Positions 4,491 through 8,919 are shown, counted from the stretch's first letter. The stretch is 11,560 nucleotides of DNA from Candidatus Heimdallarchaeota archaeon (GCA_015523565.1 WAKA01000032.1:1-11560), one strand, 5' to 3'. The notes: generated by a model from the letters alone, not told the origin. Numbers and translations are program-made.

Positions 4491-5246
4491 ATGGTAAACT
4501 TCGAAAAAGTTCTGAAAGAAGAGCGGAAATATCTCGCCAAGAACGAGCCGACATTTTATCAGGCTGATCCCGATGGGAGAGTATTTGTCGGTAAGGTTGG
4601 AAGATTGGCGACGGGTGAGGATATTAGGATACGTATCGAAATTCCAGAATTTTATCCAATTGTCAAGCCTACCGTTACAGTAATGCCTGAAATGGTGCAT
4701 CCAAATGTTGATGGAAATGGACGTTTGGATTTGCGATTATTGAATGAATGGGAACCTTCATACAGGGTGAAGGATATAATTGCCGCCGCACGAAGGCTTT
4801 TCATACACAGCCGAAATCTTGCCCGCAAACGGGTTGAAAGGCATGTGGCTCAAACACCACGCCCTGTTGAACCACAACCCGTACTTGACATGGAGCTTGA
4901 ACAATTGCAAAATCGTGTTGCAGACCTGCAAAAGCAACTAAGCAAAATCGAAAGGGAAACAAGGGAAAAACGGGAAGCCTCATTTAAGAGACAGGGCGTT
5001 CAAGTTGTCACAAATGCATCACCAGAATTGGAACTGAAGGCGGAACTGCAGGCTCTTGGAGACTTGCTGGAATTGCTTGACATTAAATTCGAAGATGCGG
5101 AAATCGACCAAACGGACTTTTTCAGATTGTTCAAACATTACATGGCCATGAAATTCAAAACAGAAGAGAAATTGGCAGAATTAAGTGGAGGATATAATTA
5201 TGTCGTATCAAACAAAAAGAAGACAGAAGAGCCTATTAGATCATAA
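4491..5246 (+). CDS. vps23: ESCRT-I subunit Vps23/TSG101-like (UEV + Pro-rich linker + coiled coil + steadiness box)
   Basis: E2-fold motifs IEIPEFYPIVKP and HPNVDGNGRLDLRLLNEWEP, with Asp at the catalytic Cys position. Then TPRPVEPQP linker, heptad coiled coil LEQLQNRVADLQKQLSKI, and SB-like ALGDLLELLDIKFEDAEIDQTDFFRLFK. Adjacent to vps28. Start placed at ATG 4491. Confidence 0.88.
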   Translation: MVNFEKVLKEERKYLAKNEPTFYQADPDGRVFVGKVGRLATGEDIRIRIEIPEFYPIVKPTVTVMPEMVHPNVDGNGRLDLRLLNEWEPSYRVKDIIAAARRLFIHSRNLARKRVERHVAQTPRPVEPQPVLDMELEQLQNRVADLQKQLSKIERETREKREASFKRQGVQVVTNASPELELKAELQALGDLLELLDIKFEDAEIDQTDFFRLFKHYMAMKFKTEEKLAELSGGYNYVVSNKKKTEEPIRS

Positions 5247-5832
5247 GGCTGACTTATATGCCGCCATCGCGACAATTGACAGGTTGGCGACACATTTTGA
5301 CAGGGGCATGGTTGAAGAAACCTTATATCGGAGACAAATGAAAGCGGCCATCTCCGACGTCTTCAAAGCTCAAATGGCTTTGGAAGAACACGGCTTTACC
5401 ATTGAGGACTTCATCAAGGAGCGGAAATTGGATGAAAAGTTTCCTGAAGGTGTTAAACGGCTGAATTTGGTTCAGGGACTTGAACGTGAAGAGGACACTT
5501 CACTTTCCTTTACTAAACTCAAGGATCTTCCTGTCAAATCGGCAGATTATGTTGCCAATGCCATCGAACTGATTGATGTGCTAAGACTCAGATCAATCGC
5601 GAGAGTGGAAATGATTGTCCCGTTGCTTGATGAAATGTACAATATTGTGAAAGAATTCCCCAATCTAGGTCCTGATCATTGGGTTGCTGTTGAGATCGAC
5701 GGATGGAGAAAAGCATTACTCGATGAAAGCCCTAGCATGACCCTTCCAGAAGAAGATGCGGAACGTTTGGAATTTGAGGCTTCACGGTGGCTCAATGAAT
5801 TCCGAAGTCAAATCAGCAAAATTGGTGGTTAG
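5200..5832 (+). CDS. vps28: ESCRT-I subunit Vps28
   Basis: N-domain ADLYAAIATIDRLATHF..G.V....Y and TIEDFIKE; C-terminal four-helix bundle ADYVANAIELIDVLRL...IVPLLDEM...W...L...ERLEFE...NEF matches eukaryotic VPS28. SD GGAGGA at 5187-5192 precedes ATG 5200. Confidence 0.9.
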   Translation: MSYQTKRRQKSLLDHKADLYAAIATIDRLATHFDRGMVEETLYRRQMKAAISDVFKAQMALEEHGFTIEDFIKERKLDEKFPEGVKRLNLVQGLEREEDTSLSFTKLKDLPVKSADYVANAIELIDVLRLRSIARVEMIVPLLDEMYNIVKEFPNLGPDHWVAVEIDGWRKALLDESPSMTLPEEDAERLEFEASRWLNEFRSQISKIGG

Positions 5833-5833
5833 A

Positions 5834-6556
5834 ATGGGTCTTCGTGATATCGAACGCAAAATCAGAATGAAAAGTGCCTATCAGGAAAAAGAAGCGGAAC
5901 TCATGTTGACTGAACTTGACTTGTTAATTGAGAACTACCGGAAACTGGAAAAACAATTAAAGGAATTTGAAAAGAAACATGGCAAGAAAATCAAGGAAAA
6001 CAGGGAATATTATGAAAAATTGTCCGAATTCAGAAGGGAGCTTGGTCTCCCCGAAGAAATTGGTGTCTATGATTGGAAAGAAAAACCATCTTTTGTAGAT
6101 AAACTTACTGGAAAGGGTTACTACGACGAAATCGCAAATGAAATTTTGGAAATTGGCAAGGAGTCCATGCGAGAAACTGGTGGACTAATGTCTGTCGCCG
6201 AAGTAACCCTTCGTCTGAACAAACGCCGACCAGGAAAGATCATTCCTCCAAAAGATGTTATTCGGGCATTGGAATCCTTGAAGAAATCTGGTCTTATACA
6301 AAATCTCAAGCAACTGGATTCTGGCACAAAAATTGTGGAATTTGTCTCTGTTGACCTTTCAAAGGATCAAGAAAAGGTATTGAGCCTTGCATCAAGAAAA
6401 GGTGGAATGTTGACCCTTGAAGAGTTGCTGATCAAGACCAAATGGCCTATGGAACGTGCCACCCGTGCTCTTGACGCCATGGTACAGGATGGGCTTGCAC
6501 TAAAGGATGACGACTATTCTGAGGGAATCCGCTATTGGTTCCCTGCTTTGGGATGA
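5834..6556 (+). CDS. vps22: ESCRT-II subunit Vps22/Vps36-like (EAP30/SNF8 family, tandem winged helix)
   Basis: LKEFEKKHGKKI, YYDEIANEILEI, TGGLMSVAEV, DVIRALESLK, LSKDQEKVL, KWPMERATRAL and GIRYWFPAL are collinear with SNF8/Vps22. ATG 5834 lies 1 nt after the vps28 stop and is preceded by GGTGG. Confidence 0.92.
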   Translation: MGLRDIERKIRMKSAYQEKEAELMLTELDLLIENYRKLEKQLKEFEKKHGKKIKENREYYEKLSEFRRELGLPEEIGVYDWKEKPSFVDKLTGKGYYDEIANEILEIGKESMRETGGLMSVAEVTLRLNKRRPGKIIPPKDVIRALESLKKSGLIQNLKQLDSGTKIVEFVSVDLSKDQEKVLSLASRKGGMLTLEELLIKTKWPMERATRALDAMVQDGLALKDDDYSEGIRYWFPALG

Positions 6557-6623
6557 TGGCTGTGCGATTCCACAACACGTATGGAAATAATATATATTCT
6601 TGTTTGCTAGGAGTGAAATAAGA

Positions 6624-7775
6624 GTGAGTAGCAATCTTTATGCACGAGCCCAACACTTTGCAAAGCTTGCAGTCGAGGCGGATAACGCAGGAAAGCATGG
6701 TGAAGCAATCAACTATTATCTCCAAGCCGCAGAGATACTTGTTGAAATGACCAAATTCACCTCTAACCCTCGACTTGTGGAAACTTACCAAAATCGTGCA
6801 AAATCATATGTTGCACGAGCCAAGGACTTGAAGAAAGAACTGAAAAAAGTGAAAAAACCTACCAGGTCCGGAAAAGGTAACGACGATGACGAGGAATCCG
6901 AGCTCGATGATGCACTCGCAGATGCTATAGTCACAGAAAAACCCAATATTTCCCTTGATGATGTGGCAGGTCTTGAAGATGTCAAGATTGCCCTCAGGGA
7001 GGCCATTGTCTTACCATTAATGCGACCTGATCTATTTACTGGGGCTCGAAGACCATGGAAAGGAATTCTTCTCTTTGGACCACCTGGGTGCGGAAAGACT
7101 ATGATCGCAAAAGCGACAGCAGGAAACATAGACGCAACATTCTTCAATATTTCTGCCGCCCATCTTGTGAGCAAGTGGTTGGGCGAATCTGAAAAATTAG
7201 TGAAAAGACTGTACGAAATGGCCAAAGAAAAACAACCCAGCATCATTTTTATTGATGAGGTCGATTCGTTGACACAAGCCCGTGGCGGTTCTGAAAATGA
7301 TGCCATGAGAAGAATCAAAACTCAGTTGCTGACCAGCATGGAGGGTCTTACCAGTGACCCGCAAACAAGGGTTGTAACTATTGGTGCAACAAATATTCCA
7401 TGGGAAATTGATTCTGCATTTCGAAGACGGTTTGAAAGAAGGATTTATGTTCCAGTCCCTGACTTCGATGCCAGGAAAAAAATATTTGAAGTGAATACAA
7501 AAGGGGTTGAGTTAGACAGTTCAGTTGATTTTACTGAGTTGGCAAAGCTCACTGAAAATTACTCTGGGTCTGATATTGCCACTATCTGTCGAGAAGCTAT
7601 CTTCATCCCCATTCGTGAACTTGATGCAAAAGGGGCAATCTCAGACACAAGCATAAAGGCAAGACCTGTGACACAGCAAGACTTCTTGACAGCACTTAAG
7701 AATGTCAAATCTTCTGTTAGCCTTGAAGAACTTCAAAAATTTGAAGATTGGGATCGTGAATACGGAGCAGGATAA
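6624..7775 (+). CDS. vps4: Vps4 AAA+ ATPase with N-terminal MIT domain
   Basis: MIT: AKLAVEADNAG...AINYY...RAKSYVARAKDLK. Walker A GPPGCGKT; pore loop SKWLGESE; Walker B IIFIDEVD; SRH ATNIPWEIDSAFRRRFERR; C-terminal FEDWDREYG. GTG 6624 is preceded by SD AGGAG at 6609-6613. Confidence 0.95.
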   Translation: MSSNLYARAQHFAKLAVEADNAGKHGEAINYYLQAAEILVEMTKFTSNPRLVETYQNRAKSYVARAKDLKKELKKVKKPTRSGKGNDDDEESELDDALADAIVTEKPNISLDDVAGLEDVKIALREAIVLPLMRPDLFTGARRPWKGILLFGPPGCGKTMIAKATAGNIDATFFNISAAHLVSKWLGESEKLVKRLYEMAKEKQPSIIFIDEVDSLTQARGGSENDAMRRIKTQLLTSMEGLTSDPQTRVVTIGATNIPWEIDSAFRRRFERRIYVPVPDFDARKKIFEVNTKGVELDSSVDFTELAKLTENYSGSDIATICREAIFIPIRELDAKGAISDTSIKARPVTQQDFLTALKNVKSSVSLEELQKFEDWDREYGAG

Positions 7776-7778
7776 AAT

Positions 7779-8483
7779 ATGTCTATCCGGGAAAAAGCCA
7801 AAAAGTATCAAAAAAAGGAAAAGGAAAGTCAACAGGAAACAGATCATCCTGTTGATTCCCCTCAATCTGTAGTTGAAGAAAAACAAACTCAACCTATAAC
7901 TAGCCAACCTATAACTAGTGAAGGCATTCAAAAAACTGACGTTACAACAGTTCCCCCTCCAGAGCTCTTGTTTCAGCAACTTATTCCTGGCTGGGTTAAC
8001 AAACCATGGATGTATATCAAACCCTCCCATCCTTCACAACTTAATTCATGGATACAAGGATGGAAGAAACTGATCTTGGATTATTGTCGAATATTTGTCA
8101 AGCATGTCATTAATTTAATGGAACTGCAAAATGTCCATCCATTCAGAAACCAAAAAAATGGAAAAACCCTCTCTCTACCACAATTGACCACAATTATTGA
8201 TTCAATGGTCGATGAGGGTCTGGCCAAATGGTTGGACGACAGCAAAATTCTGGCGCGGATTTATTATAAGCCCATTGATCAATGGGCTGACGAGATATAC
8301 AACTATCTTCTTGAAACTGGAAAAGCTGCCGAAGTTCTTACCTTCATGGAATTTCGACAAATGGATACCGATTGGAGTTCCCTTCCAGAAGAGGATCTCA
8401 AACTTATCCTTAAATCATTTGTAGATGAAGGAAAGGCAAGGTTTGTCACAAAAGAAGAAGATGCAGTTGAATTTGTCTTTTAA
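7779..8483 (+). CDS. vps25: ESCRT-II subunit Vps25 with ~65-aa low-complexity N-terminal extension
   Basis: WKKLILDYCR, HPFRNQKNGKTL, GLAKWLD, YYKPIDQWADEIYNY, VLTFME and GKARFV...VEF are collinear with eukaryotic VPS25. Starts 3 nt after the vps4 stop. Confidence 0.9.
   Translation: MSIREKAKKYQKKEKESQQETDHPVDSPQSVVEEKQTQPITSQPITSEGIQKTDVTTVPPPELLFQQLIPGWVNKPWMYIKPSHPSQLNSWIQGWKKLILDYCRIFVKHVINLMELQNVHPFRNQKNGKTLSLPQLTTIIDSMVDEGLAKWLDDSKILARIYYKPIDQWADEIYNYLLETGKAAEVLTFMEFRQMDTDWSSLPEEDLKLILKSFVDEGKARFVTKEEDAVEFVF
7890..7918 (+). repeat. In-frame tandem duplication with a 15-bp period (CAACCTATAACTAG x2, encoding QPITS-QPITS)
   Basis: Identical 14-mers at 7890-7903 and 7905-7918. Confidence 0.85.
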
Positions 8484-8532: not shown

Positions 8533-8919
8533 ATGTATTCTACTAAAATTCCTGGGACAAAATACGAAGTTGCAATTGAACGTGATGGTGGGATTTGGTA
8601 CATCCGTGTAAAGCTTTATGGCAATGTTGAATCAGAGGAAGTTCTTCCGCAAATCACACAGACGATTCTTGAAAAGAAATTAATGAACGTTCTTAAGGAA
8701 GTTAATGTACATCTGAATGACCTTCAGTTCAAAATGTTGTTCACCACTTTGACCAATCAACTCCCCCATCTTGTCAAAGATGACACTCCTGATGCAGTAT
8801 TGCCGTCCACTGAACAATTAAAAAAGATAGATGAATTGGAAAAAACAGTGAAGAGCCTTGAAAAAACAATTGAGACATTGCTTTCACGCATTGAACGTTT
8901 GGAAGAGCATCTTGCCTAA
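8533..8919 (+). CDS. Hypothetical protein: small beta-rich/alpha N-domain plus C-terminal coiled coil
   Basis: 128-aa ORF co-directional with vps25, 49 nt after its stop. C-terminal heptads IDELEKTVKSLEKTIETLLSRIERLEEHL. Confidence 0.8.
   Translation: MYSTKIPGTKYEVAIERDGGIWYIRVKLYGNVESEEVLPQITQTILEKKLMNVLKEVNVHLNDLQFKMLFTTLTNQLPHLVKDDTPDAVLPSTEQLKKIDELEKTVKSLEKTIETLLSRIERLEEHLA

Follow-up and report, generated by a model that had tools for sequence, protein, structure and literature searches.

Gene clusters that combine ESCRT-I, ESCRT-II, and Vps4 genes have been described in Asgard archaea in several studies (Hatano 2022, PMC9192718; Lu 2023, bioRxiv 10.1101/2023.07.25.550441; Makarova 2024, PMC10936438). 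In the published clusters, vps22 is reported to be associated with vps23 and vps28, and vps25 with vps4 and the ESCRT-III genes (PMC10936438; PMC9192718). Y2H and biochemical experiments on proteins from Odin, Loki, and Heimdall AB_125 support the ubiquitin–UEV, Vps23–Vps28, and ESCRT-I–Vps22 contacts, and Y2H and biochemistry likewise support the contacts of Vps25 with ESCRT-IIIB and of Vps4 with ESCRT-III (PMC9192718).

The locus considered here lies in a stretch of 11,560 nucleotides, hereafter the window, which makes up the whole of contig C32. The contig belongs to a MAG (3.57 Mb, 90% complete) from a hydrothermal-vent metagenome; the nearest relatives of this MAG are labelled Candidatus Heimdallarchaeota. 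The cluster is a genuine eukaryote-like ESCRT-I/ESCRT-II/Vps4 locus of the already published type, so that the initial annotation was right not to regard the system class as new (PMC9192718; PMC10936438). What is added here is its three-module layout, the finding that the genome as a whole has more than one copy of two subunits, and the probable dismissal of a 128-aa downstream gene as a partner. The locus resembles the Asgard ubiquitin–ESCRT clusters in its families (UEV-Vps23, Vps28, Vps22, Vps25, and Vps4), in the rule that vps22 is found with vps23 and vps28 and vps25 with vps4, and also in the presence, elsewhere in the genome, of a pair of ESCRT-III genes and of the genes for a ubiquitin system. 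It differs from the published clusters in having vps4 between vps22 and vps25 and, throughout the sub-clade to which it belongs (G000-G002), in the location of the ESCRT-III pair on another contig. Moreover, while the AB_125 type is a UEV-Vps23-Vps28 fusion of 466-490 aa, which is also seen in one family of the same order (f2), the corresponding genes are separate and overlapping here. The coordinates are collected in Table 1.

Table 1. Genes and putative expression signals of the ESCRT locus (positions in the window)
Feature	Position	Strand	Remarks
vps23-like	4491-5246	+	251 aa; UQ_con 6.2e-13; UEV 3e-5, under cut-off
vps28	5200-5832	+	210 aa; Pfam VPS28 7.4e-12
vps22/SNF8-type	5834-6556	+	240 aa; Pfam EAP30 3.2e-27, full length
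vps4	6624-7775	+	383 aa from GTG; MIT, AAA, AAA_lid_3, Vps4_C
vps25	7779-8483	+	234 aa; Pfam ESCRT-II/Vps25 (PF05871) 3.7e-22
128-aa gene	8533-8919	+	49 nt 3' of vps25
A/T-rich TATA-like box TTTATTAA	4455-4462	+	~30 nt 5' of vps23 ATG
SD GGAGGA	5187-5192	+	7 nt 5' of vps28 ATG
SD-like GGTGGT	5824-5829	+	5' of vps22
A/T-rich TATA-like box in vps22/vps4 gap	6585-6598	+	sequence read
SD AGGAGTG	6609-6615	+	8 nt 5' of vps4 GTG
SD-like GGAG/AGGA	7764-7772	+	5' of vps25

All five ESCRT genes run in the same direction without introns or interruption, and each is as long as its own orthologues. Their ORF coordinates reproduce exactly the spacing given in the initial annotation, namely, a 47-nt overlap of vps23 and vps28 (5200-5246) followed by gaps of 1 nt (5833), 67 nt (6557-6623), and 3 nt (7776-7778), and the SD motifs that it ascribed to several genes were found upstream of vps28, vps22, vps4, and vps25. 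The family assignments hold for all five genes by Pfam matches: of the profiles suggested for the check, UQ_con, VPS28, EAP30, ESCRT-II, MIT, and Vps4_C match, with UEV and Vps23_core remaining under the cut-off. The vps4 reading frame opens at TTG 6600, and the start is taken at GTG 6624; this GTG, as well as the A/T-rich box in front of it, is kept in four genomes of the genus. Upstream of vps23, a TATA-like box is positioned at a distance of about 30 nt and no Shine–Dalgarno motif was seen, so the vps23 transcript is possibly leaderless or short-leadered.

The first gene encodes what appears from its sequence to be a Cys-less UEV-stalk-hairpin protein of the Vps23 type. Its UEV domain (residues 1-110), which matches E2 folds in Foldseek with TMt ~0.6, has retained the E2 motif HPN (70-72) and is nearer active E2s than TSG101 in sequence, in which respects it differs from eukaryotic Vps23/TSG101. 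The position of the catalytic cysteine (HPN-x7) is taken by Asp80, and the entire protein has no Cys; in an alignment of 14 relatives this position is Asp, Ser, or Ala, so the family is uniformly Cys-less there. An AF2 model (pLDDT 80.5) consists of the UEV, a stalk helix (132-167), and a hairpin (178-201/207-231) that may correspond to the steadiness box, the last two elements with pLDDT >90, and the hairpin is followed by a conserved tail SNKxKTxxPIR. Pfam Vps23_core matches 11 of the 14 family members (best 9.5e-5) and gives 0.063, under the 26.8-bit cut-off, for the locus protein; a steadiness box is thus predicted from sub-threshold Pfam matches together with the modelled hairpin. A profile of the tail found no match in the PDB, Vps23/TSG101 included. 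Vps28 is complete, with an N-terminal head hairpin and a C-terminal four-helix domain: residues 17-203 cover positions 2-186 of the 188 in the Pfam profile, and the protein is conserved across 10 aligned orthologues. A UEV that lacks the catalytic Cys and a full-length Vps28 are shared with eukaryotic ESCRT-I (Vps23/TSG101-Vps28-Vps37-Mvb12), and the predicted stalk and hairpin would be a further resemblance; no Mvb12-like gene was seen among the genes examined.

With eukaryotic ESCRT-II (Vps22-Vps36-Vps25 x2; PDB 2zme/3cuq), the locus shares an SNF8-type Vps22 and Vps25. The EAP30 protein is a tandem winged helix devoid of GLUE/PH or zinc-finger extensions. Its family profile matches human and yeast SNF8/Vps22 in the PDB at 3e-30 (3.1e-30 and 108 bits for SNF8, with 2zme_A among the matches) and VPS36 at 3.9e-14 (56 bits), and by these sequence comparisons the protein is of the Vps22/SNF8 type, nearer Vps22 than Vps36. 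The GLUE/NZF domain of eukaryotic Vps36 is absent from the five locus proteins, none of which carries a membrane-binding GLUE/PH domain. In Vps25, the ESCRT-II winged-helix core is matched by Pfam at residues 83-196 and runs further; unlike its eukaryotic counterpart, the protein has an additional N-terminal extension of about 75 residues, which is poorly conserved (orthologues align only from ~20-60 onward) and contains an exact 15-nt tandem duplication (7890-7918) encoding QPITS twice. Vps4 has MIT (1.6e-12) and Vps4_C (1e-8), both in common with eukaryotic Vps4, in addition to AAA (1.7e-42) and AAA_lid_3; Walker A (GPPGCGKT), Walker B (IIFIDE), the pore loop (KWLG), and the arginine-finger region (RRRF) are all intact.

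The further components of the pathway are unlinked to the ESCRT cluster in the present genome. Two tandem Snf7 genes are found at C11:7465-8791, and the C-terminal ends of their products, DLEKEIEELRK and LEDELEALKKELE, are acidic and leucine-rich and look MIM1-like when read by eye. A separate operon on contig C104 encodes Ub-like proteins (two copies), a ThiF E1, an E2, and JAB. Very probably, the locus gives a Heimdall-group Asgard archaeon the native upstream half of its ubiquitin-linked ESCRT pathway, arranged as two adjacent modules. For this scheme, the present analysis supplies the set of genes, the integrity of their domains, the catalytic motifs, the spacing, the synteny, and the distribution, and every binding step is transferred from the published experiments with proteins of Odin, Loki, and Heimdall AB_125 (PMC9192718). 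By this analogy, the Cys-less UEV of Vps23 would bind ubiquitin on membrane cargo, and the Vps23 stalk and hairpin would form a complex with the N-terminal portion of Vps28, whose C-terminal domain would contact the winged-helix protein Vps22. Vps25 would then bind Vps22 and nucleate the two ESCRT-III proteins, and the MIT domain of Vps4 may recognize their acidic, leucine-rich C-terminal helices, so that disassembly of the ESCRT-III polymer by Vps4 would lead to membrane scission or remodelling, possibly in vesicle budding, division, or repair.

Proteins of these five families are otherwise a signature of eukaryotes, which speaks for contamination by eukaryotic DNA or for recent acquisition from a eukaryotic donor, but such an origin is exceedingly improbable. 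The organisation differs from that of eukaryotic ESCRT genes in being prokaryotic: the genes overlap or abut, bear SD motifs, and have no introns. They are flanked by genes of archaeal type (carbamate kinase, NOG1-type GTPase, ZPR1, UbiX, YggS, and EamA), the synteny of the flanks recurs in related MAGs, the GC content is even along the contig, and orthologous clusters exist in 41/41 genomes of the order. The contig is archaeal and belongs to the Heimdall group of Asgards, and the prokaryotic origin proposed earlier is borne out by the labels of the relatives and by the common synteny. Transcription of all five genes as a single polycistronic operon, from one promoter upstream of vps23, is a more serious contender, even if we consider it somewhat doubtful. 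It is favoured by the co-directional, closely spaced genes, by the SD motifs in front of the four internal genes, as expected of internal cistrons, by the lack of a terminator-like T-run in the 67-nt gap, and by the same gene order in four genomes of the genus. However, the conserved A/T-rich TATA-like box lies about 30 nt upstream of the conserved vps4 GTG, and a comparison of relatives reveals the modules vps23-vps28-vps22, vps4-vps25, and snf7A-snf7B, which are shuffled and inverted. The five-gene order is common to G001 and G002; in the congeneric G003, snf7A-snf7B follow vps25 to give a seven-gene order, the ESCRT-III pair having moved to contig C11 in the sub-clade G000-G002. In other genera (L039, L040, L046, L047, L008), vps23-vps28-vps22 and vps4-vps25 are on opposite strands or apart, and each must therefore be expressible alone. 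Because of this separation and inversion, the locus is probably transcribed as two units and not as one operon; the ESCRT-I/Vps22 module probably meets the Vps4/Vps25 module in the 67-nt gap, and we infer promoter use there from the sequence. The tight packing noted in the initial annotation stands, and a single operon is the less likely arrangement.

The same annotation viewed the locus as a minimal cargo-sorting machine in a pre-duplication state, with one Vps23/37-type and one Vps22/36-type paralogue. In such a machine, the Vps23/37-type protein would homodimerize and bind Vps28, and the Vps22/36-type protein would homodimerize and bind two Vps25. In the window, there is indeed one gene of each type, but second copies of two subunits lie elsewhere, and the genome therefore does not correspond to an ancestral state with a single copy of every subunit. 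One copy, UEV_X (C4:3554-4192, ~212 aa, outside the window), is another UEV-stalk-hairpin gene, and the other, EAP30-2 (C207:26599-27282), encodes a full-length EAP30 protein of 227 aa which, like the locus protein of 240 aa, is EAP30 only and has no Vps36-type GLUE/PH domain. We regard the pre-duplication reading as rather unlikely, although several observations speak for it. An Odin Vps23 dimer with one Vps28 and a Vps22 homodimer of Heimdall AB_125 have been reported, and Asgards lack Vps37 and Vps36 according to Hatano et al. (PMC9192718); both additional genes lie apart from the operon, and the EAP30-2 profile finds only SNF8 in the PDB (34 bits), with no affinity to Vps36. Among the 101 Asgard genomes sampled, clear, high-scoring orthologues of both extra genes were found only in the order of the present genome, so they look like lineage-specific duplications, and no orthologue of eukaryotic Vps36 emerges from these comparisons. 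Against the pre-duplication reading, both copies are kept in 41/41 genomes of that order, which represent 4 families and 13 genera, the hairpin of UEV_X is homologous to that of the operon Vps23 (hhalign 96%), other sampled Asgard genomes have 2-3 EAP30 matches, and variable numbers of ESCRT-II paralogues have been noted (Makarova et al., PMC10936438).

The tail of UEV_X also resembles Vps37/Mod_r rather than the Vps23 core. Among its non-UEV Pfam matches, Mod_r is the commonest, though always below the cut-off (it reaches 1.8e-5 and 25 bits against a cut-off of 30.1 bits), and it matches 5/9 and 9/24 members of the UEV_X family. A profile of the tail retrieved a single true Mod_r protein library-wide (E 5e-5), beside coiled-coil noise of similar strength; hhalign to this protein gave 93.6% for the UEV_X tail vs 1.5% for the tail of the operon Vps23. 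No Vps37 was found when the PDB was searched with the UEV_X profile. A UEV_X group with a UEV and a C-terminal hairpin is known from Gerd-, Heimdall-, and Kariarchaeia (Lu et al. 2023, bioRxiv 10.1101/2023.07.25.550441), and the present gene is similar to this group and to human VPS37A (UEV plus Mod_r) in its UEV, stalk, and hairpin, while the confinement of its clear orthologues to one order favours an independent duplication. It is conceivable, if improbable, that the operon Vps23 and Vps28 assemble with a VPS37A-like UEV_X and that the operon Vps22 pairs with EAP30-2. Paralogue-based asymmetry, which Hatano et al. consider a eukaryotic innovation (PMC9192718), would in that case have arisen in archaea, in parallel with or before eukaryotes.

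The 128-aa gene downstream of vps25 encodes a protein with a C-terminal coiled coil and belongs to no Pfam, NCBIfam, or Atlas family. It is present as a single copy in 36/41 genomes of the order and adjoins vps25 only in G000-G002. Being order-wide and usually located beside translation genes (in family f2, between aEF-2 and uS10), it probably has no part in the ESCRT system.

Five co-directional open frames, all of them intact, lie within positions 4491-8483 of the window, which is the whole of an 11,560-bp contig (C32) belonging to a 3.57-Mb metagenome-assembled genome (MAG) of 90% completeness. Pfam profiles match each gene to the ESCRT family to which the initial annotation had assigned it, and the spacing read there from the sequence, a 47-nt overlap followed by gaps of 1, 67, and 3 nt, is exact. 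SD-like motifs, reported there for several genes, precede four of the five; vps23 has no such motif and carries an A/T-rich box about 30 nt upstream. The start codon of vps4 is an unusual GTG, which is kept in four genomes of the genus. For the ESCRT proteins of the cluster, NCBIfam yielded no useful match, and neither Rfam nor a tRNA scan had a hit in the window.

Nothing suggests a eukaryotic origin of the contig. Its GC content is even along its length, the Vps23-like protein and Vps28 have their nearest relatives in MAGs labelled Candidatus Heimdallarchaeota, and the sequencing runs containing this stretch are all DNA runs, from one hydrothermal-vent metagenome study. An identical locus is found on a 22-kb ENA scaffold, and the flanking genes (carbamate kinase, NOG1-type GTPase, ZPR1, UbiX, YggS, and EamA) keep the same order in a congeneric MAG. 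Upstream of the NOG1 GTPase gene lie 376-aa and 174-aa genes that are syntenic in the congener G001; these two window genes belong to no Pfam or NCBIfam family. The cluster is genuine and in good condition, one more example of a published class: earlier literature already covers the system class, its association rules, and the unlinked UEV_X group discussed below as well. It is a handy example, with Vps23 and Vps28 as separate proteins and all five genes intact.

Features of the ESCRT cluster and of related loci elsewhere in the genome (positions on the named contig; C32 is the window)
Feature	Location	Strand	SD-like motif	Details
174-aa gene	C32:1311-1835	+		
376-aa gene	C32:1832-2962	-		
vps23-like	C32:4491-5246	+		Pfam UQ_con 6.2e-13; UEV 3e-5, under cut-off
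vps28	C32:5200-5832	+	GGAGGA	Pfam VPS28 7.4e-12, nearly whole profile
vps22	C32:5834-6556	+	GGTGGT	Pfam EAP30 3.2e-27, full length
vps4	C32:6624-7775	+	AGGAGTG	Pfam MIT, AAA, AAA_lid_3, Vps4_C
vps25	C32:7779-8483	+	GGAG/AGGA	Pfam ESCRT-II (Vps25) 3.7e-22
128-aa gene	C32:8533-8919	+		C-terminal coiled coil
UEV_X	C4:3554-4192	-		locus L003; 212 aa; Cys-less UEV domain, stalk, hairpin
EAP30-2	C207:26599-27282	-		L004:6600-7283; 227 aa; full-length EAP30 2.3e-15
Two tandem Snf7-family genes	C11:7465-8791	+		locus L005; 7-nt gap; 11.8-kb contig
Ubiquitin operon	C104:1125-4426	+		loci L030, L033

The Vps23-like protein retains the E2 HPN motif (residues 70-72) and has Asp80 at the position of the E2 catalytic cysteine, which is Asp, Ser, or Ala in 13 aligned relatives; its whole sequence contains no cysteine. 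In the AlphaFold model (pLDDT 80.5), a disordered linker joins the UBC fold (1-110) to a long helix (132-167), after which comes a helical hairpin modelled with confidence (178-231). The steadiness box is predicted, with less certainty than the rest of the protein. Of 14 family members, 11 have a Pfam Vps23_core match at E <=1, the best at 9.5e-5 and the window protein only at 0.063, while a profile of the hairpin tail searched against the PDB returned coiled-coil noise and no Vps23, TSG101, or Vps37 chain. Foldseek with the full model found E2 folds only, dominated by E2 enzymes, and is uninformative for the tail. After the hairpin, the family has a conserved basic C-terminal tail, SNKxKTKxPIR (residues 236-251, window 5198-5243), which is predicted to be disordered (pLDDT <50). 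The Vps22 family profile prefers human SNF8 (3e-30, 108 bits) to VPS36 (4e-14, 56 bits), in agreement with Hatano et al. (PMC9192718), who describe the Asgard protein as Vps22-like. Vps4 has an intact set of motifs: Walker A, Walker B, the KWLG pore loop, and the arginine-finger region. Roughly the first 75 residues of Vps25 are an N-terminal extension with poor conservation, within which an exact 15-nt tandem duplication (window 7890-7918) encodes QPITS twice.

The five-gene order is common to the genome under study (G000) and its congeners G001 and G002. G001 carries the 128-aa gene, ZPR1, and UbiX after vps25 on one contig; in G002, these three genes are grouped with vps25 on a second contig, the first having ended within vps4. 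A more distant congener, G003, has the order vps23-vps28-vps22-vps4-vps25-snf7A-snf7B, and the three blocks [vps23-28-22], [vps4-25], and [snf7A-B] are mutually inverted or separated in other genera. This shuffling matches the published rule that vps22 goes with vps23 and vps28, and vps25 with vps4 and ESCRT-III (PMC10936438, PMC9192718). Since the blocks move in relatives and the 67-nt vps22/vps4 gap contains a conserved A/T-rich box, this gap appears to be a module border, which makes two transcription units somewhat more likely, as judged from the sequence, than one operon.

Because snf7A-snf7B sits directly after vps25 in G003, the ESCRT-III pair appears to have been relocated in the G000-G002 sub-clade; in the genome under study, the tandem Snf7-family genes are on contig C11. 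Both proteins have acidic, leucine-rich C-terminal ends, which, judged by eye, look MIM1-like. The site of the pair in G003 is taken in G000-G002 by the 128-aa gene, which stands beside vps25 in these three genomes only. It has no family in Pfam, NCBIfam, or the ESM Atlas and is single-copy in 36 of the 41 genomes of the order. A role as an ESCRT partner was considered and rejected, given that family f2 of the same order has the gene between aEF-2 and ribosomal protein uS10; the gene probably does not belong to the ESCRT machinery.

When the window proteins were compared with the whole genome by tblastn, one further Vps23 relative (UEV_X) and one further Vps22 relative (EAP30-2) were found, both unlinked to the cluster. 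UEV_X has rps12 and a gene for an RNA polymerase subunit as neighbours and corresponds to the group of that name in the Vps23 tree of Lu et al. 2023 (bioRxiv 10.1101/2023.07.25.550441). A variable number of ESCRT-II paralogues is noted by Makarova et al. (PMC10936438). Each is present in all 41 genomes of the order (4 families, 13 genera), accompanying the operon-type copy in nearly every one. Thus, the genome is not single-paralogue, and the pre-duplication state proposed in the initial annotation, with one Vps23/37-type and one Vps22/36-type protein, finds no support at the genome level. Hatano et al. (PMC9192718) credit Asgards with a single Vps22/36-like gene and with no Vps37 homologue; for this order, both statements are incomplete and need qualifying.

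Evidence that UEV_X may be the counterpart of eukaryotic Vps37 is mixed. Its top non-UEV Pfam match is Mod_r, the Vps37 family (1.8e-5), which is also the commonest such match among UEV_X members in the same family of genomes (5/9) and among representatives world-wide (9/24), and Vps23_core is absent from the match lists of both sets; all these Mod_r matches fall under Pfam's threshold. When 1.84 billion representative proteins were searched with a profile of the UEV_X tail, 31 matched; among them was one true Mod_r protein (Pfam 2.4e-20), recovered at E 5e-5, and coiled-coil noise had similar E-values. Compared by hhalign with that Mod_r protein, the UEV_X tail reached 93.6% and the operon Vps23 tail 1.5%; Vps23 and UEV_X themselves have homologous hairpins (96%). 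Against the PDB, the UEV_X tail profile gave coiled-coil noise and no Vps37, Vps23, or TSG101 chain, and a word-index homologue search with the Mod_r protein P0047 returned only itself. Taken together, the tail seems to resemble Vps37/Mod_r more than the Vps23 core, and with such a tail UEV_X would share the architecture of human VPS37A. For EAP30-2, the corresponding question about Vps36 appears to have a clearer answer: its profile matches SNF8 only, weakly, and gives no VPS36 match.

High-scoring orthologues of UEV_X (>=96 bits) are confined to this order (14/14 sampled genomes), and scores outside it reach at most 36 bits among 101 Asgard genomes sampled, including another order of the same class. 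EAP30-2 orthologues (about 200 bits or more) are similarly limited to the order, the outside maximum in these 101 genomes being 104 bits. The parsimonious reading of both proteins would be lineage-specific duplication. Within the genus only, the gene after EAP30-2 encodes a 346-aa protein that has an N-terminal TM helix, Pro/His-rich repeats, and a faint Vps23_core match (0.037); the idea that this steadiness-box-like neighbour forms a conserved second module was rejected on account of its restriction to the genus. A Ras/Arf-like GTPase is also encoded near EAP30-2.

The second UEV and EAP30 copies turn heteromeric ESCRT-I and ESCRT-II in archaea into an experimentally testable question, and whether these order-wide extra paralogues make both complexes heteromeric is the one lead worth an experiment. 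Complex prediction with Vps23 125-251, Vps28 1-115, and UEV_X 112-212 scored 0.79, and a control in which Vps23 was replaced scored 0.73, a result that speaks neither for nor against such a complex. In family f2 (G012, G015; L043, L044), Vps23 and Vps28 of the operon type are joined in a single protein of about 470-490 aa, a fusion of the AB_125 type, and these genomes still carry UEV_X and EAP30-2.

What is observed directly is gene content, domain integrity, and synteny; we infer each binding step of a sorting chain from homology to the experimentally studied proteins of Odin, Loki, and Heimdall AB_125 (PMC9192718). The UEV domain of Vps23 would recognise ubiquitylated cargo, and the Vps23 stalk and hairpin would bind Vps28. 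Vps28 and/or Vps23 would then contact Vps22, Vps25 would serve as a bridge to ESCRT-IIIB, and Vps4 would recycle the ESCRT-III polymers via MIT-MIM contacts. The ubiquitin operon on C104 comprises two ubiquitin-like genes, a ThiF-type E1 (418 aa), an E2 (173 aa), and a JAB/MPN deubiquitinase (230 aa). Contig C97 has another Ub-like gene together with an E1-like gene, and a stand-alone E2 is found on C204.
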